This document shows, piece by piece, positions 1 to 15,871 of a stretch of DNA of 15,871 nucleotides (its first letter is position 1; each line of letters begins with the position of its first letter). The notes beneath the pieces were generated by a model that searched no databases, had not been told where the DNA came from, and saw only the letters and a program-made list of their open reading frames with translations. The stretch is from Promethearchaeota archaeon (GTDB lineage: Archaea; Asgardarchaeota; Lokiarchaeia; Sigyniarchaeales; SOKP01), in NCBI GenBank assembly GCA_016930515.1, contig JAFGGO010000030.1:1-15871 (forward strand), written 5' to 3'. Made by a program: the position numbers and the translations under genes.

Positions 1-269
1 GAGAGTTCTTTTATTTAATCCATTTCTGGTTATATACTAATAGACAATAATATGTAGGCTCGCAAGTCAAGAGGCGACTTTCAAGCCATTTCAACATTTT
101 ATAAAGGCTTCAAGGGTATTTAAATCTTTCTTTTCGAACTAAAAATATTAACCTGTTAACTATAACAATGAAATAGGCACATTTTAAACGGCGTTTAACT
201 TCATCAAGTCGATTAATTCGTGCTTGGCTTTTTAATCTTGTGGAGCCAAAATTACTAAAATAAATTTAA

Positions 270-1136: not shown

Positions 1137-1249
1137 GAACGATCTCTAAAGTATTCAACACTCAAAAAATTTTTCTCTTATAACTCATAAAACAATTAAT
1201 ATGATTTTATAATCAAGAGAACAGCGTAAGCAGCGTCAAGCGAATGTGA

Positions 1250-2278
1250 TTATAAAATCTTGGAGGTTGCATATTGCATATTGATCCCTCGAATAAAAAG
1301 CAACTTGGGAGGTTTTATGGGCGTTTTGTGAACCTCGCACTGATCGCGTTCTTTATAGTATTGGTCACATTCACTACAGTAAAAATTTTGCCTTGCTTGA
1401 TGTCTTAATGCTCGTGCTAATACCTCACTTGAGTTCAACAAGCTTCCAAAAGTTTCGGCGTCGATATTGGAAACAATCTCATCGAACTTGCAACTATCAC
1501 ATGTGATTGTTAGCTTTAATATCACGAACACGAGCTTGCGAGGACTTTTCCGGACGAGATCGAGCAAGAGAGATTTGCACCTCAAGTTCTGATCCCCGCA
1601 TTTACTACACGCCTCCTTGTTGGTTGGGGAGCTATCCCCGATGGAATGCCCTTGCAAGGGCTTCTTCTTAGCGTCGTCTAAGGTGTCCTCAAATATTTTT
1701 CTCATTTCAAGAATGTCATGTAATCTATCTTTTAGACATCTTCTTTCTTGATGTGTTACTGAGCGAGCGTGTAGTTCTTTATTTATTTCTTCTTCAAGGA
1801 GTCTTTTTTCTTTTGAATTAAATATAATGGTGATGGTTTTAATTCGTTGGTTCTCAGGTGCAGGTGATGAGATCAATTTCGATTGCGAATTCAATGCAAC
1901 TTCGTTTTTCACGACATTGCTCCTAATTGGGCGGCCTAAAATTTCCTCCATTAACTTCCTGAATGCATTTACGAATTCAGAGTGAATGTTAAACGCATTT
2001 CCGCTTAATTCAAGAGTCTCAACTTTCGTTAAAAGGTGTATCGAGTTTGGCAGTGAATATAAATTTTTGTCCTTTAACCACAGCCCGGTCACGTGCCTGT
2101 CTTTCGCTGTAAATCCAAAAATGGCATTCCCAGGATTTGACTCCGCTAGGATCGGAATTGACTGACCAAGCATTACTTCCAAGGCCACGAGAAATTGTAC
2201 CTCTTCGAGGACCAATTTCACTTCCTGATAGAAAGCTACTTTATCCCCAACCTTGTTTCTATCGTTGTTCGAGAACAT
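1250..2278 (-). CDS. hypothetical protein with N-terminal leucine-rich-repeat-like segment and C-terminal multi-CxxC zinc-ribbon region
   Basis: 342-aa ORF that starts 10 nt downstream of the stop of the HerA-like gene on the same strand, suggesting an operon. It has an LRR-like stretch HVTGLWLKDKNLYSLPNSIHLLTKVETLELSGNAF. The C-terminal half has Cys pairs CSKCGDQNLRC, CDSC and CSECDQYYKERDQC. I recognise no enzymatic motif. Confidence 0.5.
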   Translation of the reverse strand: MFSNNDRNKVGDKVAFYQEVKLVLEEVQFLVALEVMLGQSIPILAESNPGNAIFGFTAKDRHVTGLWLKDKNLYSLPNSIHLLTKVETLELSGNAFNIHSEFVNAFRKLMEEILGRPIRSNVVKNEVALNSQSKLISSPAPENQRIKTITIIFNSKEKRLLEEEINKELHARSVTHQERRCLKDRLHDILEMRKIFEDTLDDAKKKPLQGHSIGDSSPTNKEACSKCGDQNLRCKSLLLDLVRKSPRKLVFVILKLTITCDSCKFDEIVSNIDAETFGSLLNSSEVLARALRHQARQNFYCSECDQYYKERDQCEVHKTPIKPPKLLFIRGINMQYATSKIL

Positions 2279-2288
2279 CTTCTTCTCT

Positions 2289-5200
2289 CTAAGGTTTATT
2301 TTCGCTATTGTCTTGACTTAAAAGAATGTCTGAAAACTCTTGCTTTAAAAGCGTTGCGAGTCGTCCCGTGGTGTCCGTAGTACTTAATCCCTTAGCCCGT
2401 TCGAATAATTCGTGTAACTTATTCGTTTTTTCTAAAATCTTCGCCTCGATCTGCATGTTGAGGATTGGAATTTTCACACTGATGTCTTGATTTACCTGAT
2501 CATTACATTTCGGACAACGCGCCTTGGAAGCAGCAGACGAACGAAATACCTTGGGACAATTCGAACAGAAAACATAATTAGCGTGAAAGCCTCGAAGTCG
2601 TTCCCATAACTTGTCCGAAAAGTTTTGAACAGCAAAGCATGCTTTTTTAGAGGGAAACTTAATTTTCTCGATTGTTCCCTCTCGATTAATCGATATTTCA
2701 GAGATGATAAACGAATATTCGTTGGAGTCTTTCTGTCCACTTATCTGATAATGCAGCTGTTCGATGACTCCTTTATTGCAACTTTTATTTTCGAGTTCCT
2801 CGTCCCTAATCTCATCTTTCACGCCCCAATCTTTTGGTTTTACTAGATCCATTACGACTAAAAAAGGCTGGTCGTATTGTTCCAACTTAATGACGCACTC
2901 TCCAGGAGCAAGGCGGGTCACGTGTCCAAGATTCTCGGCGGATAAACCCAAAGAATCTCGAAAGTCTTCGATTTGATATCTTGAGGGTATCTTGTGGCAT
3001 ATCTTAAGCTCGGTGTTCGTGATCGCAACTTGATTGAGCTGTCGAGGTTTTTGCTCCGATATGATAAACCCTTCTCCGTAAGCGCGAATTTCGGCCAGAA
3101 TGTCGCTGAAATCCTCTTGCGACTTGTGTGCGATGCTATCTTTGGACCTATCTGAAATCCTCGCCGATGATAGAAGCCTGTGCGCCTCTTCTAATACCGT
3201 AATATGTCTCAAGGAGGTGGAAGGTTTATTTTGTTGTTGGTAAAGGTACAATAACCTCACGATGTAATTAAAAACTAGCGCTCTTTCTTCGTTGTTTCTG
3301 AGACTATCAAGTTCCAAGATGACATTTTTTTTTAAGATTCGATCGATGTTTGGATGATTTTTTGACGAATTAAAGATTTGTCCTCTCGTACCCTTGAGTA
3401 GCGAGCCAAATCTCGCCTCAAACGCTCCCAAGAAACCGTCCTTCGTGCGGTAGTCATAACTCGAGAATCGAATTTTCAAGACGGTATACTTGAAAAAATC
3501 TTCCAAGGTTGGCGTTCTTCCCCTCTTAATTTCGGTCCAGCCGTTTACCTGATAAATTTCAACCAGAGAGGTATAAATGACATCCCTAAAAGGGTACCAG
3601 ATGTAAAAGGTGTTCGAAATTACCTCAAGAAGCTCGTTTACCCATTGAGTATAATTCAAAAAGCGTGGAACTTCAAAAAGGTTAATCTTCAATCTATTCG
3701 TGGCTGCTCCAGCGGAATATACTTCCACGTTCTTGAAGTGATTGAGCACGTGACGATATTCTTTTTTAATGGGTTCCACGACTAGGAAGGGAATCTTTTT
3801 TTCTCGTGATTTCATCAAAATATTAAGGACGGTATTGGTCTTACCAGATCCCGTTGATCCTATGACTAAACAATGTCGGGTAAGAGAATCCAAATCCAGG
3901 TAAAAATCTTCTACCACGTCACTTCCTCGCTTAATGCGACCGATCCGAAGGGGATTTGCCATTTTATTTACCGCCATCTCTGGAAGTTCTTCGGAGAAAT
4001 CAGGGATCTTAAGAACTTTAAAATTCGAAATCGATCTTGTCGGTAAATTGATGTGATCGCCTAACCTGTGCGAGGAATAAATGGTTCGATATGGCTTAAA
4101 CTCGGAAGAGGCTTCCAAGCCCGTGCCCAAGGTCGTAACTGCCTTGAAGGACTTGGGAAACCAATTCAACGGCTCGCCAAGTTGAAATGCATCGACGGGA
4201 AACCAAAAATCGCCTTGGTTCTTAAAATGGGATTTGATGATGGCGTAGATGGTATAATAAGTGCTTTTTTTATCGGCAAAAATATAATTGAACGTGTCCC
4301 AGAGGCCGTGTGTTGCATTTTCTCTTATATATTTATTAATTAATCCGATTTTTTTGATCGCTCTGAATTTTGCGTGCCTCATCGTAAACTCTCTAGTCTT
4401 TTCCGTGTTATCTATTTCGTTGAAATAAAACTCCTCGTCTGGCGTGATTATTGCGTCTAATACATCCTTCAAGTCGGAAAGAATGACCTTGATCCGTTCC
4501 TGATTCAGGCTTTCACCTATTGTAAGAAATCCCCATTTTTGCTTGTTGAGAGCGTTGTTAATCTCGGAAAGGACACTGTTTGTAATAGTCTCCGTTGCGT
4601 GACCTGTTAAGCAACCATAAATTCCTCTATTCTCCACGAACTCAAGGATATCCTCGTGCTCTTGTTGGTTCAAGAACGATATCTTCAGGTTTGGAAAACC
4701 CGAAACCAGTACTTTCTTGAACAAATCGAACTGCTCTTGAAGCGACTTAAGAACATCTTTAGGATTGTTGCCAGAATGTAAAATTCCCAAATAGAATCGA
4801 AAACCTTTCTTGTCGTTTAGCAATATTCGAATTATCTTGCATCCGAAATAATTAAGCGCTTCGAGCATGTTCCTCATAAAAATGTGCCGTCCTTTCACGT
4901 TATCCTCGTTTTTTAAACTTAAACCGTCAATTCTTAAGAGTTTTACGTATTCGAACTTTATTCCGCTTTCTTCAGGGTTTTTTAGCTCTATCACATCATT
5001 GAAGGCATGTTTGGTAGTGAGCACGGCTTCTGCAAGCATTTTTGAATCTACGAGCGCCTCGAGCTCCTCCCGAACTGGGGCGTTGGAGTGATCCAAAGAA
5101 TTCAAAAGCAATTTCTCGTACGAGAGTTCTTTCTCACCGGGTACGGTCTCTTGGCGTTTCTTTAAGGTGTTTTCTAATGCAAAATGTATCAATTCTCCTG

Positions 5201-5582
5201 AAATGGTTAAAAAATGTAAACGAGCTCCCAGAACTTGCGATAATTTCTCTATAGTTGATTTGATCGAGTAATTATACTGATTCACGTTGAAATATAATCC
5301 TTCTTCGCAAACTGTAAGTTCCAACTCGTTTAATATTACATTGTAGAGCTCTTGAAAAAACACCTTATCGTTTAAGATCTCGATGGGGATTACAGACACC
5401 TTCGATCCTGGAAAGTAACTCTGTATTTTGTTAACGATGCCATTAATTTCGATTTTATTTATACTAACTAAGCCATGGGAAGATTCTTTTTCGTCCTTTT
5501 TCCTTCTTTTTATAATTGCATCCTTTTTAGGAAGGATGACAATATGAGAAGAGTTAGAAAGTAGAGCTGCTCGCACGGTCAA
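2289..5582 (-). CDS. HerA/FtsK-superfamily (DUF87/COG0433-like) ATPase with a large unknown N-terminal region and a C-terminal zinc ribbon
   Basis: 1097-aa ORF. Walker A is in RHCLVIGSTGSGKTNTVLNIL, followed by PFLVVEPIKKEY (HerA DPhGEY-like). Walker B is HITVLEEAHRLL. The arginine-finger region is AEIRAYGEGFIISEQKPRQLNQVAITNTELKICHKI. A CxxC-x13-CxxC zinc ribbon (CSNCPKVFRSSAASKARCPKCN) lies near the C-terminus. The first ~550 aa have no motif I recognise. The TTG start at 5582 is preceded by AGGAG with a 5-nt spacer. Confidence 0.8.
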   Translation of the reverse strand: MTVRAALLSNSSHIVILPKKDAIIKRRKKDEKESSHGLVSINKIEINGIVNKIQSYFPGSKVSVIPIEILNDKVFFQELYNVILNELELTVCEEGLYFNVNQYNYSIKSTIEKLSQVLGARLHFLTISGELIHFALENTLKKRQETVPGEKELSYEKLLLNSLDHSNAPVREELEALVDSKMLAEAVLTTKHAFNDVIELKNPEESGIKFEYVKLLRIDGLSLKNEDNVKGRHIFMRNMLEALNYFGCKIIRILLNDKKGFRFYLGILHSGNNPKDVLKSLQEQFDLFKKVLVSGFPNLKISFLNQQEHEDILEFVENRGIYGCLTGHATETITNSVLSEINNALNKQKWGFLTIGESLNQERIKVILSDLKDVLDAIITPDEEFYFNEIDNTEKTREFTMRHAKFRAIKKIGLINKYIRENATHGLWDTFNYIFADKKSTYYTIYAIIKSHFKNQGDFWFPVDAFQLGEPLNWFPKSFKAVTTLGTGLEASSEFKPYRTIYSSHRLGDHINLPTRSISNFKVLKIPDFSEELPEMAVNKMANPLRIGRIKRGSDVVEDFYLDLDSLTRHCLVIGSTGSGKTNTVLNILMKSREKKIPFLVVEPIKKEYRHVLNHFKNVEVYSAGAATNRLKINLFEVPRFLNYTQWVNELLEVISNTFYIWYPFRDVIYTSLVEIYQVNGWTEIKRGRTPTLEDFFKYTVLKIRFSSYDYRTKDGFLGAFEARFGSLLKGTRGQIFNSSKNHPNIDRILKKNVILELDSLRNNEERALVFNYIVRLLYLYQQQNKPSTSLRHITVLEEAHRLLSSARISDRSKDSIAHKSQEDFSDILAEIRAYGEGFIISEQKPRQLNQVAITNTELKICHKIPSRYQIEDFRDSLGLSAENLGHVTRLAPGECVIKLEQYDQPFLVVMDLVKPKDWGVKDEIRDEELENKSCNKGVIEQLHYQISGQKDSNEYSFIISEISINREGTIEKIKFPSKKACFAVQNFSDKLWERLRGFHANYVFCSNCPKVFRSSAASKARCPKCNDQVNQDISVKIPILNMQIEAKILEKTNKLHELFERAKGLSTTDTTGRLATLLKQEFSDILLSQDNSENKP

Positions 5583-5584
5583 TT

Positions 5585-5592
5585 CCTCTCCT
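5585..5592 (-). promoter_or_regulatory. Shine-Dalgarno-like ribosome-binding site for the HerA-like ATPase gene
   Basis: The minus strand reads AGGAGAGGAA immediately before the TTG start at 5582-5580. Confidence 0.55.
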
Positions 5593-6023
5593 TTATTCGT
5601 CCTTCATTGTCGTGAAATCCAAATCCGAGCAGCTCTTCGGAAATCATTAGATTTTTCCGATATTTCCTATAACGCACCTTCTTTTTCGAAATTGATTTAA
5701 CCCTGTTGTCTTTTTTCAATCACACACCCCCATTGATATTTTTTTCTTCAAGTAATAAGAAGTAGTGATAAGTATTTATACTTTATCACAATAATCTGCG
5801 TGATTAGGTGAGAGCGAAAAATTGTATTCACAATTTGGAATGGATTCTAAAGTTATGGAAAGGATTTCTAGGATTGAAAAATCACCATAGAATTACTTAA
5901 ATGAAATTTAAGACATCCAGATTATAATTAATACGAATTAACTCCATTTAATCCAAGATTAAAAAATAGTAATATGAAATTAATTCCCAAGATTAAGAAG
6001 GATATTCCATCGTATCTTAAGAA

Positions 6024-7268
6024 CTATTGGTTAAACACAGCAACTAGATTAGTGAAAAAGGCTATTGAATCGCTAAAACTGCAAGACATTGAGATTGAAT
6101 CGATTTTATCTAAAATAACTTTTAAATGATTGTTTAAGTTTTGGGATTTGTTGCCAAGCCGATTAATTTTTTCGCTCGTCGTAAAGACATGTGCATAGTC
6201 ATTTCTCTCAACCGAGAGAGAATTAACTTCTCCAAACAAGCTTGATTCGTTTATACCGTGTTCATTAGTGCTGGTTGCAAATCGAAACCTCCTAAAAAGT
6301 TCGTCGGACCTTTCCCTCTGAGCGGTATCGAGTGGATCAAGATCTAATATATCCTCACATAACCAAGATATGAAACTCTCTCGAACCAATCCAAGAGATG
6401 TTGAAAAATCCATTTTTCGAGTTAAGAGCAATCTTGCTAAATTCAATTGTCTCTTCCATAATTTCTTTATTTCATCGTTCTCTCCAAATATTTCTTTTTT
6501 TATCGTCTCGAGTTCAGGAATGATGCCTTGATAAAACGAGTTGCGATAAAAATCATCGTATTCTTTAAAAATATTTTGGGGTTTTCTCGTAAAATGATCG
6601 CTGCTCAAAAAGCGGTTTAATTTTCCCAATAATTCATCGCTCGCAACTCCTGAATTAAGGAATAGCATGATTTTTTGTAGTTCTAAAACTACATTTCTTA
6701 ACGCTTTTACCTTGCTTTTTGCCCATTCAAACGCAGAAATATCTAAGTTTTCTATCAAAAGCTTGATGTGAGATATCTCGTGTTGGAGCATTACTAATTG
6801 ATCGAGTTGTACGAATTTTGAGGTAGTATTAGGACCACGAGAGATTGCGTAATAAATCTTTTCGAGAATGTTTGAAGAAACATTTTCGAAGTAATAGACA
6901 AACGAAAAAAGCAAGCTTTGAAATAATCTAAATCCAAGAGTAATATCGATGATGACGGAGGAATGATTAATATTTCCTAAAACGGTAGTTAGCTTGTTTA
7001 AAAAAAGCCATATGTCCTTTTCTTCCTTGATCTCTGAAATTTCGTATGGTACAATTTTGCATGAGGACGAAGAAGCTTCTTCTAGGATTTGTTTAACTGG
7101 TTCTCGCTGCTTGAATCTCTCAGGAGGAGGATCGGGGATCGACCAACCGTTAAAGGTTTGCTTCCCTTCGGGCGTGTCGGGATAAAAAACGATTATCTGG
7201 GATAAGCTTGTTTTCTCGACTTCGTCTAAGTACTTTACGAGAGCATATGTAGAACACCAATGATTCAC
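6024..7268 (-). CDS. csx1: Csx1/Csm6-family CARF-HEPN ribonuclease; the ORF as tracked starts at GTG and lacks the first CARF strand, and may be disrupted
   Basis: The HEPN R-x4-H motif ERNDYAH (RNDYAH encoded at 6189-6206) sits in the C-terminal domain. The CARF loop motif is VIIDITLGFR. Length and architecture fit Csx1. The N-terminal strand KVLITVLGNS is encoded in frame upstream of the tracked start (see the next feature). Confidence 0.8.
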   Translation of the reverse strand: MNHWCSTYALVKYLDEVEKTSLSQIIVFYPDTPEGKQTFNGWSIPDPPPERFKQREPVKQILEEASSSSCKIVPYEISEIKEEKDIWLFLNKLTTVLGNINHSSVIIDITLGFRLFQSLLFSFVYYFENVSSNILEKIYYAISRGPNTTSKFVQLDQLVMLQHEISHIKLLIENLDISAFEWAKSKVKALRNVVLELQKIMLFLNSGVASDELLGKLNRFLSSDHFTRKPQNIFKEYDDFYRNSFYQGIIPELETIKKEIFGENDEIKKLWKRQLNLARLLLTRKMDFSTSLGLVRESFISWLCEDILDLDPLDTAQRERSDELFRRFRFATSTNEHGINESSLFGEVNSLSVERNDYAHVFTTSEKINRLGNKSQNLNNHLKVILDKIDSISMSCSFSDSIAFFTNLVAVFNQ

Positions 7269-7403
7269 GGAAAAACTCTCGTGAGAATCGGCTACATCAA
7301 AAGAATAAGTCGTGTCGTAATAAAATTGCGAATTGCCTAAAACCGTGATTAAAACTTTTTCTCGTTCTCGCTCTTCGTGTTGCTCTTCTTGTTATTCGTT
7401 CAT
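7269..7403 (-). other. in-frame 5' extension of csx1 encoding CARF strand beta-1, interrupted by a TAA at codon 4
   Basis: The minus strand reads ATG(7403-7401) AAC GAA TAA(7394-7392) CAA GAA GAG ... AAA GTT TTA ATC ACG GTT TTA GGC. This translates as MNE*QEEQHEEREREKVLITVLGNSQFYYDTTYSFDVADSHESFS and is continuous with the tracked ORF. There is no ATG, GTG or TTG between the TAA and the GTG at 7268. Confidence 0.7.
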
Positions 7404-7537
7404 TTCTATCACTGCTGCGGATCATTAGTCGATCGTATAAAAGTGTTTCTTTATATTTTTGAAACAAAGAAAAATTAAGTCTGCATGATTTCATGACAAA
7501 GATTTATAGCCTCGTTGTTGCGATTGTTAAGAAGGAT

Positions 7538-8176
7538 TTAAAGCCATAATACCTTCTTTCCACTGAAATACATTCGCTTCAAACCGTATTTATCGCTCAA
7601 TTCTCGAAGGGCAAGAGAAACGGGCTTCGTTCCTCCCGTTAGTTCGCAGATGATTTCAAACTCGTTGATATTTTCTATTATGAGGTCTTCAAGGTTTGAA
7701 AGCACTTCTGGATAATTTTCTCGCAAGATTTCTTGAAAATTCACGGCTTTAACTTCCGTTTTCACGGATTTAAACTTCCCTTTATCGAACTTCTTAAAGT
7801 CCTTGCTCAATTCAGGACTTGTGAGAAGGAGGTACTTCTTTGGCAGGATGCTTATATCTTCTAACGCAGCGAGCACGGCAGTAAAGAGATCCAGTTGGCC
7901 AAGACCTCCGATCAAGCATATTGGTACGATTTCCTGGAATAAAGACCTGAGAGGTTGAATACTCGTCTCGTTTATCTTGTAATATCCTCTTTTTTTAATT
8001 CTCTTGAGCAGTCCAGCGTCAACTAGTTTTTTCAGGTGAAAATCGGGTCGTGAAGTATCGTTGCGGACGTGATCCTTTATTTGCTCGTAATAAAGCGCCT
8101 TGCGTTCTGATAAGAAATAGAACATGATTTTCTTTCGATTAGGATTTTCCAATGCTTCGTTTAAATTACCTGACAC
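7538..8176 (-). CDS. wHTH-CARF protein, a putative cOA-responsive transcription regulator with Csa3-like logic but reversed domain order
   Basis: 212 aa. The N-terminus is an ArsR-type winged helix (NPNRKKIMFYFLSERKALYYEQIKDHV...HLKKLVDAGLLKRIKKRGYYKINE). The C-terminus is a CARF-like Rossmann unit with ICLIGGLG (strand 1 and Gly loop) and the ligand-loop motif EIICELTGGTKPVSLAL. GTG start. Confidence 0.7.
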   Translation of the reverse strand: MSGNLNEALENPNRKKIMFYFLSERKALYYEQIKDHVRNDTSRPDFHLKKLVDAGLLKRIKKRGYYKINETSIQPLRSLFQEIVPICLIGGLGQLDLFTAVLAALEDISILPKKYLLLTSPELSKDFKKFDKGKFKSVKTEVKAVNFQEILRENYPEVLSNLEDLIIENINEFEIICELTGGTKPVSLALRELSDKYGLKRMYFSGKKVLWL

Positions 8177-8444
8177 GACCGTATACCGTTTTAAAAGTTC
8201 ACTCGAAATGATTGTCGGAGCGGTAAACTTTAAGGCTCCGTTATTTTAATCTCATTATCTCACAATAGAAGGACCTTATTTAAATAATTATCGACTTTGC
8301 AGAGTAGATGGTACCTTCTTTGCGTTTATGTATATAAATATCACAATAAATATAAACCTTTTATGAAAATTTTGTATAATTCCAAGCCTTAAAAAAAAAT
8401 AAATTCTTATTTGAAATAGAACGATAAACCAACCCGAATGATTC

Positions 8445-8873
8445 ATGCTAGATAATGATGTTTTTTCTGAACTGAAGGATAAAAATAACACGTGTATGTT
8501 AGGTGGTCTGGGGGATGTTGAACTTTTTGTTGATTTATTGGATGCTCTCGAGCGAGATTACGGAATCGTTCCTAAAAAATATGTGCTTATTACTAGCCCT
8601 GAAATACACGAAAAATTTAAAAAAGGAGATCTAAATCTTGATAAGGTACGCAGCGAAATTTACGAGTTTGACTTTCAAACAGTTTTAAGAGAAGATATCC
8701 AGAAACTCAAGATCGTTTTTAAGGATATTATTGATAAAATTGAGAAAAACCACGAGATCATCTGCGACATCACGGGAGGGACTAAACCCGTATCTATTGC
8801 TTTAATGTCTATTGCAACTGAAAAAAAATTGCTTAAAATTTACTTTAGCGGACGGCATTTTATAAAGATATAG
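8445..8873 (+). CDS. stand-alone minimal CARF-domain protein, paralog of the CARF half of the 7538-8176 product
   Basis: 142 aa. It aligns along its whole length with residues ~85-212 of the neighbouring wHTH-CARF protein. Shared blocks are GGLG, PKKY.L.TSPE, FKK, LRE, EIIC.(I/L)TGGTKPVS.AL and YFSG, about 35-45 percent identity by eye. It has no DNA-binding or effector domain. An alternative start at the internal Met (MLGGLG) is possible. Confidence 0.65.
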   Translation: MLDNDVFSELKDKNNTCMLGGLGDVELFVDLLDALERDYGIVPKKYVLITSPEIHEKFKKGDLNLDKVRSEIYEFDFQTVLREDIQKLKIVFKDIIDKIEKNHEIICDITGGTKPVSIALMSIATEKKLLKIYFSGRHFIKI

Positions 8874-9095
8874 TATATTTCAAAATTACATGCGATATTG
8901 CAAGATTTAAATAAGGTGAAAATAATCCTCTTCAATAACTTGGATAATATTATCATTTAAATATTAGAATAAGGGAAAAATTTTGGATCCTAAAAAAATT
9001 TTCATAACTACAATAAGAATATATAGTTATAAAATACTGGATAAAAATATAACCACATAAATTAAAAGATATAAATCTAAATGGTTAATTAACTC

Positions 9096-11201
9096 ATGAT
9101 AACTTGGATAACTACGGTCGGATGGAGCCCGTTTGCCGTCATTAATCCCATCTGGGCGTATTGTAAGGATAAAGGGCGATTTCCCTCACGAATAAAGCTA
9201 TTGCACACCTCGCATATTAAGATTTTGGAAAACTTAGATATCTGCAAGAAAAATATTTTTAAAATCTTAAAATCTTATTCGAACGATCGGAATTTTCAAC
9301 CGCAAATCGATTCCTGCCCAGTGAAAAGCGAAGATATTGAAATATATACCGAAGCTCTCAAGGATGTTGTCAATTCGGTCATCAAGTTAGGAGACTCGGA
9401 ATTGATCATTCTCGACATGACGCCTGGAAGGAAATACATGTCGGCTAAAGTCATGCATGTGGGCGAGCAGGTAAATTCAATAGAAAATCCTGTTCAAGTT
9501 TTTTACCTCGCCTTGGAAGACTTGACTTACATGAATTCGACATATCCGACAATACCCTTATTTACTCAGGGCCTCAACAACATCTTGGAAGACGCCGATT
9601 TCCAGATGCAAACGCCTCCAGATCCCCAGGTACAACTGAACGATCTGATCAATCAAGTACTTAACACTAATTCGTTAAGAATGATAAACAATCCCGAAAA
9701 ACAACTGGAAATATTCGTACTTTCTGCTCTCGCTCTTGGATACGATACAATCACGAGGTTAAGCAGGTTTGCCAGGGAAAATCACCTAAATTACAATAGA
9801 AACGATATTAATAACACGGTAAGAAGGCTCGGAATCATGGAAGGATATCTTTACGAGAGCGTGCGAATTTCAAACGACACAACAGTAGACATCATCATCG
9901 TTACTCCTGAAGGTATCGAATATTTAAGAGAGATCCTTGAAGAACTTCTCACCGATCATCCTCCAGAAGCCCTTGTTAACGTGAATCGTCAGCCTCACAC
10001 GAGTCTTGACGAATTGAGTCTGCAAAACATCTACATGCAAGCCGAAAATAAAAATAAGAAATACATCGATTTAGAAGTAGACAAGCTCGTCGTTTTTCTG
10101 AACGAACTTTACTCTCATAACCTTAGAACCTTTCACGTGGTCGATTGTTATTATGGTATCAACTTGTTAAGGGTTGATCTCGAGCTAGGCAAGGACGAAA
10201 TCAATCTCCGATTTGAAAATTCCCTTAGATCCCTCCCGGATAAAAAAGGGCAAAAAAAATGTCTTGAAGATCTGCGTAGGAATGTTTCAAACATTCCGGG
10301 CATCGTGTTCAAGGAAATACCCTATAAAAACCAATTTCTGGACGCGATACGAAAATCTGGAGTGTTTTTTAACGAGACCTGCATGGAACAATTCAAGCAG
10401 AAACTCGATCAAATCGTCAATTCAAACCCGATTAGAGGCGATAGGTATAAAGTGTTTAGTTTCGACACGTGTACCTTTTCGAACCAGACTTTCTCTCATC
10501 TCTACAAATATTACACGAGCCACCCGATTTACGGTAATAAAATCAACCGATTAGACTTTTTGGTTTCAAAAGGAGTTATTGACGAATTATCCGATTTTGA
10601 AAACAAGTATGGAAATAAAGAATTTCACGATTTTCTCGACTACTTGACCAAGATCGCCTCTTTCCCAAAGATCGTGGAACAATTTAAAAATCAAAGCACG
10701 CTTCAAGCGAGATTAACCAAGTTAGGGCGATGCGACTACTTGAAGACGAAATCGCTTGCAAACGTGAGAGAGATAGAGATTGGTGGTGAAGAGTCCCTCC
10801 ACATGGACAGTCGCATCATTAGTGGCCTGCAAACCGAAGTTCAACGATTAAATAATATTGATTTATACTTGTGCTCGCACGACGATAACTTTTACGGTCG
10901 CGCAACAGGATTTGCGGGCGTTTCACCTCACTTATTTCTATACAAAAACGTACTTCACAAGAAAGAACAAAATTTCTCGATTAAAACAAGCTGGGACACT
11001 TTTTCAAGAATCCTCTATTATTTAGCAGTTACCTTCGGAGCTATCATACTAAACGTTGACAGTAAAGACAAGTTCGTGTTATTTGGAACTTGGCCTGGAC
11101 ATAAAACCCAAGATTGGCAACGGGAACGCACGCGGATCTATTCGGAGAATTCGATCCTGAAAAACATGGTTCGAGATATGAAAATTATCAATTCAGACTA
11201 A
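9096..11201 (+). CDS. CARF-wHTH-(unknown)-PIN-like multidomain protein, a candidate cOA-regulated nuclease
   Basis: 701 aa. Residues 1-~165 carry a Csm6/NE0113-type CARF signature (ITTVGWSPFAVINPIWAY and ILDMTPGRKYMS). Residues ~200-285 look like a MarR/Csa3-type wHTH (EIFVLSALALGYDTITRLSRFA...NNTVRRLGIMEGYLYE). Residues ~450-612 have acidic residues in PIN order and context: VFSFD(457)TCTF, GVIDE(497)LSDF, SLHMD(571)SRIISGL and LYLCSHDD(596/597)NFYG. Residues ~300-450 and ~615-701 are unassigned. Confidence 0.7.
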   Translation: MITWITTVGWSPFAVINPIWAYCKDKGRFPSRIKLLHTSHIKILENLDICKKNIFKILKSYSNDRNFQPQIDSCPVKSEDIEIYTEALKDVVNSVIKLGDSELIILDMTPGRKYMSAKVMHVGEQVNSIENPVQVFYLALEDLTYMNSTYPTIPLFTQGLNNILEDADFQMQTPPDPQVQLNDLINQVLNTNSLRMINNPEKQLEIFVLSALALGYDTITRLSRFARENHLNYNRNDINNTVRRLGIMEGYLYESVRISNDTTVDIIIVTPEGIEYLREILEELLTDHPPEALVNVNRQPHTSLDELSLQNIYMQAENKNKKYIDLEVDKLVVFLNELYSHNLRTFHVVDCYYGINLLRVDLELGKDEINLRFENSLRSLPDKKGQKKCLEDLRRNVSNIPGIVFKEIPYKNQFLDAIRKSGVFFNETCMEQFKQKLDQIVNSNPIRGDRYKVFSFDTCTFSNQTFSHLYKYYTSHPIYGNKINRLDFLVSKGVIDELSDFENKYGNKEFHDFLDYLTKIASFPKIVEQFKNQSTLQARLTKLGRCDYLKTKSLANVREIEIGGEESLHMDSRIISGLQTEVQRLNNIDLYLCSHDDNFYGRATGFAGVSPHLFLYKNVLHKKEQNFSIKTSWDTFSRILYYLAVTFGAIILNVDSKDKFVLFGTWPGHKTQDWQRERTRIYSENSILKNMVRDMKIINSD

Positions 11202-11255
11202 AATAAGATTAATAATTTATAGATTGAATATTTCTATTATTTTCTTCATTGATTC

Positions 11256-11558
11256 TTATTTGATCCTTTTTAAAATACCCATTTGATGTTCTTCTGCCAG
11301 CATTTCTTCAATGTTTAAAATCTTTCCCTCGGGAGGTCGATTTTTTAAGCGAAATACCAGCGCTATTTGGCTCGGCTTCATTTTTACCTGTATTCTATTC
11401 GCTTTAATCGGCGTGTTGAGAATAACAGATAGTATTTCTGCCGTTGATTCGTGTCCTACTGCCGAGATTGCTTTCGAAAGGTCTAATGTCATCTTGCTTT
11501 CGTCGAATTCGAAAAACTCGTAGGTACCATAATCCGTGAGGATGGCTGCGTTTAACAC
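11256..11558 (-). CDS. crn2: DUF1874-family ring nuclease (Crn2 / AcrIII-1-like, cA4-degrading)
   Basis: 100 aa with a GTG start. It is collinear with my recollection of the STIV B116 / SIRV1 gp29 family: LNAAIL..., the catalytic-His block SAVGHESTAEILSVIL, then NRIQVKM, ALVFRLKNRPPEGKIL. Size and motif order match the family. Confidence 0.8.
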   Translation of the reverse strand: MLNAAILTDYGTYEFFEFDESKMTLDLSKAISAVGHESTAEILSVILNTPIKANRIQVKMKPSQIALVFRLKNRPPEGKILNIEEMLAEEHQMGILKRIK

Positions 11559-11700
11559 GAAATCAATATTTACTGTTTGCTTGCCCTCATTACTTTTCTT
11601 GTTATTTTTATCAGTTTTAATCGTTTATCACTTTGCAATTTATTTTTTAAAGTATAGAAAAATGATTTATTGGATTGATCCTGACTTGAGATGGATTCGT

Positions 11701-12660
11701 TCAGGATCCGATGAATTTCGTTCTAATCTCTTGGAAATCAAACGGTCTCGTCAGACTGTAAACGCTTCCCGCCCTATAAAAGAAACTTGCTCGTGGAAAA
11801 TGTCCGCACAGTCCGTGCAGTAACACGGTATATATAATCCCAATAGAAGACAAACCCGCAGGGAGGACGGCGTACTTGCCTATTTTTAAATGCCTGAGGA
11901 CTCCTTCTAAATTAATCACATCGTCAATGGTCTTAACGCAAAAATCTTTAACCGTTTCGTGGTAGGTTAGCGGATTGGTAAGATCTAAACTTGGAGTAGC
12001 TCTTGTTACTTTTTTATACCCTTTCCACTGGCTTATCTCGTGAAGTGCCTCGTCGGACAACTCGTGGCGTGCCAGATTAAGAAAGACGAGGTCCTCTTCA
12101 ATGCTCGGCGGTTGATTCACGGGTGTTTGTACATCTCGATAATGGTTTCGAATGGATTGAAGCGTGATTCGAGGTGTTAAATCGTATCCGTTGTCTTTTT
12201 CGTAAAAGAACGACATTATCGGAAAGTGACCCGTCATTCCGTGAAGCATGGTCGTGAACATTATCGCAGTGGAGTTCAATCCTGGCGGAACGATGACGCA
12301 TTTCTGAGTCGCCAAGATTTCGACGAGAGATTCTCGATTTACGAGCCTATCGAGGATTTCAGCGCAATAATCTCCAACCACTTGCATGTAGGAGGCGGGA
12401 TTCGTCAAGTCCAGGGTTGCAGGTTCGATCTCCACGATTTCGATTTTTCCCCATTGAGATATCGTTTTCAGCGCGTCTTCGTTAAATTTACGCCCAGATA
12501 GGTTTACAACGATGACGTCGCACTCCTCGTATTTTTTCTTCTTTTTCCGGTTAAGTAGCTTTTTTCGAGCGGTAATAATTGATTTTACCAAACTTTCAAT
12601 CAACCTAAAAGTAAAGTAATTGTTTATCATGTTTTCCACGGTTTCCTTTTTTATCTTCAT
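11701..12660 (-). CDS. csx15: tandem-duplicated Csx15-like protein (two Csx15 modules fused), CRISPR type III accessory
   Basis: 319 aa. Two homologous modules span residues ~47-176 (nt 12133-12522) and ~189-316 (nt 11713-12096). Both share NL(S/A), DEAL..ISQW, LDLTNP, P.GL(N/S)S, LHG..GHFP..SFFY and LT.P...Q.IR. The pattern matches my recollection of single-domain Csx15 (LNFSHP..., PSLN..., ELHGRMGYFP). A ~45-aa N-terminal helix and Lys-rich linker precede module 1. Confidence 0.6.
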   Translation of the reverse strand: MKIKKETVENMINNYFTFRLIESLVKSIITARKKLLNRKKKKKYEECDVIVVNLSGRKFNEDALKTISQWGKIEIVEIEPATLDLTNPASYMQVVGDYCAEILDRLVNRESLVEILATQKCVIVPPGLNSTAIMFTTMLHGMTGHFPIMSFFYEKDNGYDLTPRITLQSIRNHYRDVQTPVNQPPSIEEDLVFLNLARHELSDEALHEISQWKGYKKVTRATPSLDLTNPLTYHETVKDFCVKTIDDVINLEGVLRHLKIGKYAVLPAGLSSIGIIYTVLLHGLCGHFPRASFFYRAGSVYSLTRPFDFQEIRTKFIGS

Positions 12661-12853
12661 TGGGTTTAAGGTAATGATATGATACTATTAAATTTAAAGG
12701 TTTGTACTCCATCACAAATTCGCGTGCGAAAGTTTATAAAGTTGCATTGATAAATTTAAATTGAAAAAAATTTTTAAGTGATTTAACACGAGTCAAGAAA
12801 TCGAAAAAATCGTTGCAAAACGAGATTGGTGGGACGATATTAATTGGTCCCAG

Positions 12854-13894
12854 ATGGAATTCGTCGTCAGGGAGTTTCAAGAAGAAATATCAAGAGCCTC
12901 GAAGAATAGGAACATGAAGAAGACAAATAAACTCATGAAAGAGCTCGTTCGATCCCCTGAGGCCAAGCTCCTTGCCATCTACAAGATTACCCAAAAAAAC
13001 AAGGGCAAGCATACAGCAGGAAACGACGGCAAGAAATACGAAACGACCGCAGCAAGAATGGACTTGTTTAAAAGGCGTTTTGATTATAGGTGGTACAGGT
13101 TTAATAAAATTCTCGTGAGAGAGATTCCAAAAAAAAACAAAGATAGGAATCGAAAGAAATTTGACGGTAATAACGTCGTAAAAAAGCGCAAGTTAGGAAT
13201 CATGACCCTGAAGGATAGGGTGATGACCAAGATCGTTAGTTTTGCGCTCGTGGCAAAATGGGAACCTTTTCTCGAGTCGAACGTGATGGGCTATCGCGAG
13301 GGAAAGAGTGTTCAAGATTGCATCCATTTGGCCTGCAAGGAGCTGACAAAGGGCAATAAAATCGTATTAGACGCCGATATCAAGAACTTTTTCGAAAACA
13401 TCAATCACGAGGCAGTTTTAAAACACCTGCAGGTGTTTCGAAGGTTTGTCAAGCGCTTGTTAAAAATAAAAGTTGCAACGCCACACAAGAGAGCTCGTAA
13501 AAATCGCAGGGGTATTGTCCAAGGGAGCCCTCTCAGTCCCGTGCTCTCGAACATCGCTTTACACGGCATGCAAGATCTGTTTGACACGCAATTAATCGGA
13601 AATAAACTCGTTAAAGCCGGATCGAAGGTTTCAGTGATCAGATATGCCGACGACTTCGTGGTGTTCGCACCTTCGAGACACGCCATTGAGTCCTGGGTCT
13701 TGCCTAAGATAAAGGATTTCCTGGAACATCGCGGTCTTTCTCTCAACATAGAAAAGACGAAAATCGTCACCAAGGAAGAAGGGTTCACGTTTTTAGGGTA
13801 CACGATCAAGCAAGAAGGCAAGGACCTGTTAGTGTTCCCGGAGAAAAATCCGAAAGCGCGACGGGCAAAAGAAATAATACACCTTGCACTATAG
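12854..13894 (+). CDS. group-II-intron-like reverse transcriptase, CRISPR adaptation-associated, not fused to Cas1, no thumb/X domain
   Basis: 346 aa with RT motifs in order: KGKHTAGNDG, RKLGIMTLKDRVMTKIV, VLDADIKNFFENINHE, RGIVQGSPLSPVLSNIALHGM, IRYADDFVVF, LNIEKTKIV and FTFLGY. The protein stops ~27 aa after FLGY. Homology to group II RT N-termini (W..INW) continues in frame upstream of the ATG to about 12824. Confidence 0.9.
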   Translation: MEFVVREFQEEISRASKNRNMKKTNKLMKELVRSPEAKLLAIYKITQKNKGKHTAGNDGKKYETTAARMDLFKRRFDYRWYRFNKILVREIPKKNKDRNRKKFDGNNVVKKRKLGIMTLKDRVMTKIVSFALVAKWEPFLESNVMGYREGKSVQDCIHLACKELTKGNKIVLDADIKNFFENINHEAVLKHLQVFRRFVKRLLKIKVATPHKRARKNRRGIVQGSPLSPVLSNIALHGMQDLFDTQLIGNKLVKAGSKVSVIRYADDFVVFAPSRHAIESWVLPKIKDFLEHRGLSLNIEKTKIVTKEEGFTFLGYTIKQEGKDLLVFPEKNPKARRAKEIIHLAL

Positions 13895-13938
13895 CGATTT
13901 CAATTGATTAACAAGAGAGTGGAGCGCGAGAAATAACC

Positions 13939-14217
13939 GTGTACATCGTGGCCTACGACATTACTGATAACAAGCGATTGAGAGAGGTCGCAAACACTTG
14001 CCTGCAATACCTCTCGCGGGTTCAAAAGTCCGTGTTCGAGGGAGATTTGACGCCGAGCCAATTGCATTCGCTAAAAAAAGAATTGAAGTCGATCATGGAC
14101 GATAAAACGGATTCCATCTTGTTTTATTTTTTAAAAAATTCCTCAATAAAAAAAAGAATCGTGCTTGGAAAGAGGAAAAACGACCCGTTTTTCATAAAAG
14201 AAGGGGACGAATCGTAA
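13939..14217 (+). CDS. cas2: CRISPR-associated endoribonuclease Cas2
   Basis: 92 aa with a GTG start. It has the canonical Cas2 N-terminus MYIVAYDITDNKRLREV with catalytic Asp, then RVQKSVFEGDLT and DSILFYFL. Confidence 0.9.
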   Translation: MYIVAYDITDNKRLREVANTCLQYLSRVQKSVFEGDLTPSQLHSLKKELKSIMDDKTDSILFYFLKNSSIKKRIVLGKRKNDPFFIKEGDES

Positions 14218-14294
14218 AAGCGTAAAGGATTAGAAATTAAGTGACATGTGAACAAACAAAAAAATTTGAATTCGAAGGGAGAGAGAGATAAAAG

Positions 14295-15305
14295 ATGCAA
14301 AAAACGCTTTACATAACGAGCTCGAAGTTTGAATTGAAAAAGGAAAACGACACGATCAAATACGAGCGAGCAGATCCCGATAACGCGGGAAAAAACATCA
14401 CGCAGGTAATTCCCGTGATGCAACTAGCGTCTATCGAAACCTATGGGAACGTGAAGATCAGCACGCCCCTGTTAAAGCTCTGCAACGAGCTGGGAATACC
14501 CTGCTTTTTTAACACTTATCGAGGGCATCCCATAGGGAAATTCGTGCCCGAAAGACCGAAACCAAGCATCGTGCGGCTCAAGCAGTTCGAAACCCATCTT
14601 GACGAGGAGAGAAAGCTCCACATTGCCAAGGCGATCGTTAGAAAAGCCTGCGAAGAACGGATAAAACTCGTAAATAAATACGACGAGAAGGGAAGCTTGA
14701 AAAAAATTACAGGAGAAATTTCTTCTTTTTTGAAAAAGACTGCGAGCGCCAAAACCACGAACCAACTTCGAGGATTTGAGGGAAACGCCATGAAGGCGTT
14801 TTTCGAGGCTTTTTCAAAAATTCTCAAGCACTTGTCCTTTAACGGCAGGTCCACGCAACCGCCCAAGGACGAGGCGAACGCCCTAATTAGCTTCGGGAAT
14901 GTGATGCTGTACAACAAGGTGCGAGCCGTTCTTTATCGAACCTCGCTCGATCCGTTAGTGGGATTCTTGCACGAACCTCACGAGAATCGAAACTCTCTTG
15001 CGCTTGATATGGCCGAGATCTTCCGTCCAATAACCGTGGATGCCACGATCTTAATGCTCGATCGAAAAAGAAATATTACTTCAGAACATTTTAAGCACGA
15101 TAAAATAAAATGCTTATTAAATCCTGCGGGTAAGCACATATGGATAGAGACATTCAGAAATAAATTAGAATCGTCTTTCGATTACAAACCGCTTAAAAGA
15201 AAGGTTTCTATACAAGAACAAATCAAGATTGAATGCTTTAATCTCATTAAATATTTCAATCGGGAAAAAAGTAATTACGCACCAATTGAATTTAATACCT
15301 TGTAA
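14295..15305 (+). CDS. cas1: CRISPR-associated integrase Cas1
   Basis: 336 aa. Cas1 motifs are LRGFEGNAMKAFF (catalytic Glu), PPKDEANALISFGNVMLY and DPLVGFLHEPHENRNSLALDMAEIFRP (catalytic His and Asp/Glu). A GGGAGAGAGAG purine tract lies upstream of the ATG. Confidence 0.95.
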   Translation: MQKTLYITSSKFELKKENDTIKYERADPDNAGKNITQVIPVMQLASIETYGNVKISTPLLKLCNELGIPCFFNTYRGHPIGKFVPERPKPSIVRLKQFETHLDEERKLHIAKAIVRKACEERIKLVNKYDEKGSLKKITGEISSFLKKTASAKTTNQLRGFEGNAMKAFFEAFSKILKHLSFNGRSTQPPKDEANALISFGNVMLYNKVRAVLYRTSLDPLVGFLHEPHENRNSLALDMAEIFRPITVDATILMLDRKRNITSEHFKHDKIKCLLNPAGKHIWIETFRNKLESSFDYKPLKRKVSIQEQIKIECFNLIKYFNREKSNYAPIEFNTL

Positions 15306-15319
15306 AAATAGAGGATTCT

Positions 15320-15871
15320 TTGAAAATGTTCACGCACGATTACATCGAACCCCATCAAGTCAACTCCTTCGTCTATTGTCGCCGCAAGTGGTATTATCAA
15401 AATCGATTGAAATTAAGACTTGAACGCGATAACTTAATTTTAGGACAAAAAATTCACCAAGAGCACAAGTTAACTCGATATAAATATAAGGAACTATACA
15501 TGACTTCGGAACAGTTAAAATTGAAAGGAATGTGCGATTACGTCATCGAAGATGAGGGAGTTCTCGTTCCCTTGGAACTTAAAATCGGAAAGTCTAACAA
15601 TGGCAGGCCTTTCGAAAACGATATCGCTCAACTGGTTTGTTACATTCTCTTGTTAGAAGATTACCTTAAAAGTCCCCTGACCCACGGATATCTCCTCTAT
15701 CTTGGATCGCGACAAAAATTAAAAATTAAATGCGATAAAAAAGCAAGATCCGAATTATTCACGATAATTAAATCGATTCGAGAACAAGTTCGCTTGAATA
15801 AAATACCTAAGCTCCCTCAAACCAACGATAGATGCAAGAATTGTTCATTTTTTGACTATTGCTGGTATTAA
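15320..15871 (+). CDS. cas4: CRISPR-associated RecB-like exonuclease Cas4 (Fe-S cluster type)
   Basis: Cys in VYCRRKWYY plus the C-terminal CKNCSFFDYC gives the four-Cys cluster. The nuclease motifs are CDYV...PLELKIGK (D...ExK) and QLVCYILLL (QxxxY). The tracked start is TTG at 15320. ATG at 15326 (MFTHDY) is an equally plausible start, downstream of AGAGGA. The TAA stop occupies the last 3 nt of the window. Confidence 0.9.
   Translation: MKMFTHDYIEPHQVNSFVYCRRKWYYQNRLKLRLERDNLILGQKIHQEHKLTRYKYKELYMTSEQLKLKGMCDYVIEDEGVLVPLELKIGKSNNGRPFENDIAQLVCYILLLEDYLKSPLTHGYLLYLGSRQKLKIKCDKKARSELFTIIKSIREQVRLNKIPKLPQTNDRCKNCSFFDYCWY

Follow-up and report, generated by a model that had tools for sequence, protein, structure and literature searches.

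Signalling by cyclic oligoadenylates (cOA) in CRISPR-Cas systems of type III has been dissected mostly in bacteria and in Sulfolobales. The described systems closest to the locus considered here are the CARF-PIN protein SiRe_0806 of Sulfolobus islandicus, solved in the apo form (PDB 9JXW) and with cyclic tetra-adenylate (cA4; PDB 9JXX), on which no publication was found in the literature searched; Crn1, in which a catalytic serine and an Arg-Lys pair have assigned roles (PMC10018336); the Crn2/AcrIII-1 ring nucleases SIRV1 gp29, STIV B116 and AFV3-109, with H47 of SIRV1 gp29 as the absolutely conserved catalytic histidine; and Csx15, a dimeric protein of the CARF superfamily, with cA4 sandwiched between head-to-tail stacked dimers (PMC13148439). 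Some Csx15 proteins only sponge cA4 and others cleave it slowly with a motif-I histidine (H13) and a second histidine (H90) (PMC13148439), the motif-I residue being H13 in CliCsx15 and H11 in PfCsx15 and the second histidine H82/H90. A role as threshold filter or sponge has been proposed for the family (PMC13148439), while Csx15 fused to a Schlafen nuclease is a cA4 sensor (PMC13462974). Here, we compare with these systems a stretch of 15,871 nucleotides from a Promethearchaeota archaeon (contig JAFGGO010000030.1 of assembly GCA_016930515.1, positions 1 to 15,871; called the window throughout), which probably represents the accessory signalling part of a Lokiarchaeota/Promethearchaeota CRISPR-Cas locus that answers cA4 from a type III Cas10 encoded outside the contig.

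A cluster of six cOA genes

The window is nearly one entire metagenomic contig, annotated at NCBI as belonging to a Candidatus Lokiarchaeota archaeon metagenome-assembled genome (locus tags around JW891_02680-02720), with a length of 16,029 bp in the NCBI version and of 15,829 bp in Logan (SRR13394437_2902062; L001, related loci being designated by further L numbers). An exact-protein look-up found the window proteins only on these two contigs. All window proteins were scanned with three profile libraries, Pfam, NCBIfam and PADLOC, the last of which includes models of the CARF clades CARF1-9 and CARF_m1-13, names that we take to be those of the 2020 CARF classification.

An original prediction made from the letters alone had read the six consecutive genes between 6024 and 12660 as cOA genes, namely csx1, a winged helix-turn-helix (wHTH)-CARF gene, a small CARF gene, a CARF-wHTH-PIN gene, a DUF1874 ring nuclease gene and a double csx15. 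Profiles support the proposed domains for all six, the CARF assignments, which failing profile searches could have undone, are upheld by the Pfam, NCBIfam and PADLOC scans, and the loop signatures DITLGFR, TGGTKPVS and TPGRKYMS are all present. Comparison with related genomes shows the six genes to be partly syntenic, as a core in L009/L010 and as a block in L016. Since six adjacent genes of one pathway are involved, and are partly syntenic in relatives, their clustering is not a chance arrangement. Family membership, motifs, predicted folds, synteny and the adjacency of CRISPR arrays in relatives are what is established for the locus.

The window contains two nuclease effectors, one or two regulator-type CARF proteins, a Crn2, a Csx15 tandem and a possibly self-limiting CARF_m1. 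In surveys of effectors and ring nucleases per locus, the co-occurrence of three effectors is rare among ~1000 type III loci (PMC11229360), more than one ring nuclease is present in 10 of 242 ring-nuclease-positive loci, and Crn2 and Csx15 occur in just 7 prokaryotic loci and in 18 loci, respectively (PMC12409355). Measured against these numbers the cluster is unusually dense, as had been claimed, and its combination of signal-removing genes is unusually rich. The locus stands out in density but is not unique in its lineage, as a sister locus (L002) combines a double-CARF7 protein, a fused CARF-wHTH-PIN protein, a reverse transcriptase (RT), Csx15 and an array, and L013 has a Csa3-like CARF gene beside a CARF-PIN gene.

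By analogy with the described systems cA4 is the likely messenger, a proposal of the original prediction that fits the literature: archaeal type III loci possess cA4 effectors only, with no cA3 or cA6 effectors found (PMC11229360), Crn2 and Csx15 have proved specific for cA4 wherever tested (PMC12409355, PMC13148439), and SiRe_0806 was crystallised with cA4.

The 701-residue CARF-wHTH-PIN protein

The gene at 9096-11201 (plus strand) encodes a CARF_m1-wHTH-alpha/beta-PIN protein of 701 residues that belongs to the family Crf6 and matches the PADLOC models CARF_m1--CARF_PIN (E 5.8e-43) and CARF_m1--CARF (1.6e-19). Its AlphaFold2 model, built on a 73-sequence alignment (pLDDT 90.3, pTM 0.82), consists of a CARF fold with the TPGRKYMS loop (residues 1-165, 9096-9590; pLDDT > 90), a wHTH (residues 177-285, 9624-9950), a low-confidence linker (residues 294-316), an alpha/beta domain (residues 320-445, 10053-10430) and a PIN domain (residues 451-701, 10446-11198). 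The acidic residues of the PIN domain are D457, E497, D571 and D595/D596, with the family consensus DTN..EL..D..I..S.D..F; Pfam PIN_12 and PIN_4 match homologues weakly, in all cases under the cut-off.

A HMMER search of 1.84 billion representatives recovered 163 relatives, just two of which are fused, the others being CARF-wHTH proteins of ~285-305 residues, CARF-only proteins of ~160 residues and lone C-terminal modules of ~340-395 residues. Of the six related genome loci fetched, five, from Promethearchaeota (L008-L012), encode the halves in neighbouring genes that either are separate or overlap slightly, and the sixth has only a 49-residue fragment. The low-confidence linker of the model falls exactly where these relatives are split. 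Judged by these sequences the window protein is a gene fusion, which would mean that its CARF-wHTH part and its PIN part act jointly; a fusion with a two-gene form conserved in relatives is classically read as a sign that the two proteins interact physically.

The nearest solved structure is SiRe_0806, which ranks first in the Foldseek search of the PDB with the model (E 5e-9), followed by Crn1 Sso2081 and Sis0455, Csa3, Card1 and Csm6, and which is equally ahead with the family profile (7e-12, Crn1 at ~1e-6). In both proteins a CARF bearing the D-x-TPGRKYM loop stands at the N-terminus and a PIN with the acidic DTN / D / S(T)xD motifs at the C-terminus, whereas SiRe_0806 has ~410 residues and the 701-residue protein adds the wHTH and the alpha/beta domain between CARF and PIN. 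The loop common with cA4-bound SiRe_0806 suggests that the window protein may bind cA4 and act as a cA4-dependent nuclease. In an alignment with Crn1 the catalytic serine S11 and the Arg-Lys pair R112-K113 are kept; on Sso2081 the CARF superposes at ~3.1 Å with 20% identity, with GWS11P against GTS11P and R112-K113 against R105-K106 of Sso2081, and the domain order of the CARF-wHTH form of Crn1 (Sso1393/Sis0811) matches the N-terminal half. On the other hand, the NCBIfam Crn1 model NF040581 yields 13.7 bits against a cut-off of 125, so that the protein falls outside this curated model and its likeness to Crn1 is limited to structure and the conserved Ser and Arg-Lys pair, and its best CARF family is CARF_m1, not the CARF7 of Crn1, fused here to a nuclease module.

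The family is clearly CRISPR-linked in the window, L002 and L009/L010. Three Promethearchaeota contigs share a six-gene operon (L008 9316-17427, L011 9335-17396, L012 9334-17263) that encodes, in this order, a Csa3-like protein (CARF and HTH), CARF_m1-wHTH, PIN, a superfamily 1 (SF1) helicase (AAA_11/AAA_12, ~900 residues), a ~370-residue protein and a PLD nuclease (~520 residues), in islands with Hma, SNF2 and type I restriction-modification genes.

The tandem Csx15

The gene at 11701-12660 (minus strand) encodes a protein of 319 residues that matches the NCBIfam Csx15 model NF040560 (59.9 bits, cut-off 35) in two stretches, half 1 at residues 46-175 (12136-12525) and half 2 at residues 188-319 (11704-12099), with 38% identity between the halves (E 1e-34). 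Both keep the PPG...LHGxxGHFP core, as LHGMTGHFP and LHGLCGHFP, and with it the second conserved histidine (H82/H90), and the C-terminal arginines R171 and R313 are invariant among the tandem homologues, of which nine further ones were found, with 311-320 residues and all tandem. Among PDB sequences PfCsx15 (9TET) matches at 9e-5. PfCsx15 and CliCsx15 (9TEU) are homodimers of ~125-146 residues, whereas the window protein has both domains in one chain. It also departs from characterised Csx15 by a helix and a basic stretch added at its N-terminus and by a gene linked to an RT adaptation module, not to Crn1.

The AlphaFold2 model of the single chain (pLDDT 81, pTM 0.84) aligns through both halves, over 285-299 columns, with SAVED domains (Foldseek; E to 3e-5, TM-score 0.4-0.53), among them SAVED-CHAT, Cap5, Cap4, TIR-SAVED and the viral SAVED ring nuclease AcrIII-2/Crn5 (9R8S, target-normalised TM-score 0.53), and additionally with one viral protein of 236 residues; in the Pfam, NCBIfam and PADLOC scans no SAVED family profile matches. 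The protein is a Csx15 duplication that by its predicted structure resembles a SAVED domain in fold, which fits the reported superposition of the Csx15 dimer on the AcrIII-2 SAVED monomer, the dimer here being one chain.

The gene adjoins a maturase-less RT in six of seven loci, namely the window, L002 (where it has one domain only), L014, L015, L016 and L018, but not L019; L016 keeps the window order Csx15x2, RT-Cas2-Cas1-Cas4. In L003-L006 tandem csx15 adjoins a stand-alone PIN gene related to the 701-residue protein, plus an array. These observations permit a bolder reading, which we consider unlikely: the protein would be a recent CARF-type duplication-fusion into a SAVED-like single-chain receptor, with the duplication still recognisable from the 38% identity of the halves, and would be a living intermediate of the transition from CARF dimer to SAVED that stacks as monomers around cA4 and, given the pairing with the RT in six of seven loci, couples RT-dependent spacer acquisition to the level of cA4 instead of only shutting off effectors.

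All tandem homologues start with an N-terminal helix followed by an Arg/Lys run (RRRRKSKK), corresponding to residues 1-45 (12526-12660) of the window protein; the helix is hydrophobic enough for a membrane anchor in most homologues, less so in the window protein. In L003, L004 and L006 tandem csx15 is located near genes for small GTPases of the Arf/Ras/Roc type, which fit an Asgard host.

CARF_m5 proteins, Csx1 and Crn2

Two paralogues of the minor clade CARF_m5 are encoded divergently. The wHTH-CARF_m5 protein (7538-8176, minus strand, 212 residues) matches PADLOC CARF_m5 (6.2e-42) over residues 8-212, Pfam HTH_5, HTH_20 and CARF_Card1 (1.8e-4) and the NCBIfam ArsR/SmtB wHTH, with the wHTH at residues 8-80 preceding the CARF at residues 100-212. 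The TGGTKPVS loop, present in both paralogues, is located here at residue 180. Like Csa3, the protein joins a CARF to a winged helix and has a predicted role in cOA-dependent transcription control; however, the order in Csa3 is CARF then wHTH and is reversed here, the Csa3 profile matches are weak, and the protein cannot be counted as a Csa3. Nearest among solved structures are the CARFs of Card1 and Cdn1, with weak matches only. The domain content predicts a cOA-responsive transcription factor, the gene of which opens a minus-strand unit running into csx1.

The stand-alone CARF_m5 protein (8445-8873, plus strand, 142 residues; PADLOC CARF_m5 2.2e-27, Pfam CARF_Card1 33.8 bits with a cut-off of 24.6) shows 44% identity to the CARF half of its paralogue, is devoid of a DNA-binding domain and has an orthologue of 116 residues in L009/L010. 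It may serve as a buffer for cA4, as a ring nuclease or as a partner in heterodimers. Between the two genes lies an AT-rich intergenic region of 268 nucleotides, in which the repeat search identified a GC-rich near-palindrome of 25 nucleotides at 8216-8240, CGGAGCGGTAAA-C-TTTAAGGCTCCG, with arms of 12 nucleotides that are 83% complementary and one nucleotide apart; it is a candidate operator.

Csx1 (CARF-HEPN) is encoded on the minus strand at 6024-7268 from the first canonical start and in frame to ~7349. The positions of the open reading frames in the original prediction stand except for this start, as the codons for the first CARF strand (KVLITVLGNS) lie in the same frame but upstream of the GTG at 7268. 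NCBI names the product 'TM1812 family CRISPR-associated protein', with 441 residues from an ATC codon at 7349. The match to PADLOC PDLC01032 (Csx1/Csm6, CARF and HEPN) improves from E 1e-19 for the 414-residue form to 4e-22 for the 441-residue form, covering model positions 7-372 of 412, and that to CARF2--CARF_HEPN from 2e-19 to 3e-21. The protein matches CARF-HEPN models over the full length and belongs to clade CARF2; the curated NCBIfam model TIGR02221 scores 26.9 bits, under its cut-off of 76. The CARF loop DITLGFR is located at residue 108 (414-residue form) and the catalytic R-x4-6-H motif of the HEPN domain near the C-terminus as R355-NDYA-H360 (6189-6206). No relatives of Csx1 were found in the JGI metagenome contigs. 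An Arg-rich reading frame at 7297-7494 (orf65), which has no homologue and is called by neither annotation, was treated as spurious.

The DUF1874 protein (11256-11558, minus strand, 100 residues) matches Pfam PF08960 (STIV_B116-like) with 75 bits against a cut-off of 26 (E 5.6e-21) and, among PDB sequences, AFV3-109, STIV B116, SIRV1 gp29 (2x4i, 6scf) and Csx1-Crn2. Its H36, in a GHES motif, aligns with H47 of SIRV1 gp29 in an ungapped alignment of residues 24-88 on 35-99 of 2x4i. With the Crn2/AcrIII-1 proteins it has in common the size, the His47 equivalent and the PEG loop, and it differs from the usual members in its host CRISPR neighbourhood. The best PADLOC model is labelled 'Csx16' (1e-20), a label that seems to cover both families; NCBIfam gave no match to the Csx16 family at E <= 0.1.

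Adaptation module and arrays in related loci

Divergent from tandem csx15, the RT gene (12854-13894, plus strand) is the first of an adaptation operon with cas2 (13939-14217; Pfam CRISPR_Cas2), cas1 (14295-15305; Pfam Cas_Cas1, PADLOC Cas1 3e-81) and cas4 (15320-15871; Pfam Cas_Cas4), all on the plus strand, and the window ends at the cas4 stop codon. The RT (Pfam RVT_N and RVT_1; PADLOC RT and the RT part of Cas1_IIIb) is related to group II intron RTs and lacks a maturase domain, as do its nearest relatives of 346-372 residues (no PF08388). A location inside a group II intron was rejected, as Rfam found no group II intron RNA.

In L002, L003/5, L007, L010, L014, L018 and L019, relatives of the window genes are located directly beside CRISPR arrays with repeats ending ATTGAAAC. 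The core of stand-alone CARF_m5, DUF1874 and CARF-wHTH plus PIN is conserved in L009/L010, and in L010 arrays at 3-224 and 4964-5298, with the 37-nucleotide repeat GTTTCAATCTTCTTTATGAAGCTAATTTTGTTGCTAC, flank the four-gene core. Such conserved sub-blocks retain their order across genomes at 35-60% identity. The double-CARF7 protein of L002 (2794-5541, minus strand) has 915 residues and two CARF7 domains (Crn1/Cami1-type, 'CARF_RelE'), and the array of this locus at 10532-11262 has the 30-nucleotide repeat GTTTCAATCTATTTCTAGTTAAAATAAAAC. In L019 (3-4058) the RT is found between a cas1-cas4 pair, followed by the array, and a second cas1 3' end with cas4, an arrangement that suggests duplication or rearrangement around the RT.

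Counter-evidence and alternative explanations

Several findings weigh against the reading of the window as an accessory cA4-signalling part of a type III locus. No Cas10-sized or GGDD-bearing gene is present in the window and its profile scans found no Csm or Cmr gene; nor was a CRISPR array found there, in agreement with the original prediction, which placed neither Cas10 nor array in the window. Among the annotated neighbours and window-protein matches of the fetched related loci no Cas10 was seen either, no dedicated Cas10 profile scan having been made: the short loci have arrays and further CARF genes, and the long loci L008, L011 and L012 have Hma, type I restriction-modification, SNF2, SF1 helicase and PLD genes and no cas genes. 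In these last three the split pair of the 701-residue family is situated in islands of Hma and restriction-modification genes and has no cas gene nearer than 10 kb, which agrees with the 2025 CRISPR classification, where the family Crf6 (CARF_m1, CARF+PIN) is typically not CRISPR-associated. Cas1 of the window is nearest to I-B-type models, with Cas4 alongside, and by this resemblance the adaptation module could serve, or be shared with, a type I system. The RT argues for type III use.

Individual components raise points of the same kind. In the reading frame ahead of csx1 (7269-7400, minus strand) no ATG, GTG or TTG occurs after the stop codon until the GTG at 7268, which lies downstream of the first CARF strand; csx1 may, as there is no canonical start ahead of that strand, be poorly expressed, decaying or started from a rare codon. 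In tandem Csx15 motif I of half 1 reads S55-G56-R57, with arginine in place of histidine in 10 of 10 tandem homologues, and that of half 2 reads A197-R198-H199 in the window protein, as read from the motif position in the homologue alignment and not from a direct comparison with the crystallised proteins. With motif I as S-G-R in one half and A-R-H in the other, the protein is predicted to be either a cA4 sponge or a slow ring nuclease.

Among the alternatives, the one that survives best sees in the cluster cOA modules that were acquired independently and gathered in a defence island, in part redundant or decaying, each working, or no longer working, by itself, with no evolved division of labour, a possibility that we take seriously while considering it doubtful. 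The absence of a canonical csx1 start would agree with it, as would the alternating gene orientations in four transcription units and the way in which components recombine across relatives, with the four-gene core on its own in L009/L010, the Csx15 tandem with only the RT in L014-L016 or with a lone PIN in L003-L006, and split CARF-wHTH and PIN genes with a helicase and a PLD nuclease in L008, L011 and L012; extensive module shuffling is usual in these pathways (PMC12669027). However, the conserved order of the sub-blocks at 35-60% identity points to selection on at least pairs of genes, and all parts point to one ligand. At the biochemical level, moreover, such an accretion is compatible with a cA4-answering locus.

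That the sensors answer a ligand other than a cOA, or another cyclase such as a CBASS-like enzyme or a minimal CRISPR polymerase, appears very unlikely. The habitual distance of Crf6 and of the split homologues from cas genes would suit such a ligand, ~25% of csx15 genes are orphan (PMC13148439), and the CARF of RtcR is reported not to use cOA (PMC7790460). But a cyclase-like gene or GGDD motif is absent from the window, cas genes or arrays adjoin the genes in the window, L002, L010 and L014-L019, and the specificity of Crn2 and Csx15 in all tested cases, together with cA4 in the SiRe_0806 crystal, speaks for the one ligand.

The ends and the left part of the contig bear on a third alternative. 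A 30-nucleotide inverted repeat, ATAAAGGCTTCAAGGGTATTTAAATCTTTC, has its left copy at 101-130 and its reverse complement at 15800-15829 of the Logan contig, 28 nucleotides past the cas4 stop and outside the window; the Logan contig starts and stops at the repeat copies, which have no exact match in the JGI metagenome contigs. With the Logan k presumably 31, the 30 nucleotides would equal k-1. The inverted repeat may be much longer and could belong to a pair of CRISPR leaders or arrays, to insertion sequence copies or to mobile-element termini. A CRISPR array at the left end of the window was rejected, as a periodic repeat is absent. Left of csx1 are found, all on the minus strand, genes for an HhH-GPD glycosylase (270-1136), a zinc-ribbon protein of 342 residues with several CxxC pairs (1250-2278) and a HerA/FtsK-like ATPase of 1097 residues (2289-5582). 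The latter has the P-loop region at residues 540-920, N-terminal 540 residues with no assignment and C-terminal zinc ribbons, and matches Pfam DUF87, PADLOC HerA (1.4e-17), weakly the 'HerA Type III coevolved' model (6e-10) and HerA proteins in the PDB; a hidden CARF or Csx15 sensor in its N-terminal 300 residues was rejected (hhalign probability < 1%). Membership of the HerA and zinc-ribbon genes (1250-5582) in the cOA cluster is uncertain. A viral origin of the cluster finds no support, as a search of a viral contig collection with the 701-residue family and the HerA protein found no relatives.

It is hardly probable that the 15.7-kb segment between the inverted ends is mobile-element cargo with an anti-CRISPR function, in which Crn2 and Csx15 quench host type III signalling: a repeat on both sides of the contig, a HerA/FtsK-type ATPase and the mostly viral occurrence of Crn2/AcrIII-1, the archaeal copies of which usually adjoin mobile-element reading frames, would be in line with it, but the repeat may only mark a branch of the assembly graph, integrase, transposase, capsid genes and a tRNA target are lacking in the window scans, which gave no tRNA or Rfam family at all, the viral contigs hold no relatives, Csx15 is not found in phage genomes (PMC13148439), and a full adaptation module with two toxic effectors is host-type content.

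Proposed mechanism and significance

Taking the accessory cA4-signalling part of a type III locus as the probable nature of the window, we infer the ligand, the enzymatic activities, the way in which the genes are regulated and the presence of a cyclase as follows. A Cas10 complex encoded elsewhere would make cA4, which on the CARF dimer of Csx1 would switch on the HEPN RNase and on the Crn1-like CARF_m1 of the 701-residue protein would switch on the PIN nuclease. As the catalytic serine and Arg-Lys pair of Crn1 are kept, this CARF may cleave cA4 too, the effector thereby limiting itself. The wHTH-CARF_m5 protein would make transcription, both of the operon that it opens, including csx1, and of the divergent genes, depend on the cA4 level, and would likely be a transcriptional feedback element, while its stand-alone paralogue could titrate cA4 or form inactive heterodimers with it. 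Tandem Csx15, as a stoichiometric sponge or slow nuclease, would filter low, accidental cA4, and Crn2 would be the fast enzyme that resets the cell, so that the signal would be removed on two time-scales, with the Crn1-like CARF of the PIN protein as a possible third route. A layered division into effector, regulator, buffer and off-switch, as originally proposed, is on these grounds plausible, though purely inferred.

Every family in the cluster is already known; what is new are two variants, the fusion of CARF-wHTH with PIN in one protein and the RT-linked tandem of Csx15 that resembles SAVED. Should none of the proposed functions hold up, the window would still be a correctly annotated multi-CARF CRISPR accessory island of known families. 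With two cA4-type nucleases and a CARF transcription factor of reversed domain order together with a paralogue devoid of a DNA-binding domain, the locus offers a compact Asgard-archaeal model for experiments, in which as many as three routes of signal removal would make testable the question why a cell combines a sponge with a fast ring nuclease and with effectors that limit themselves.

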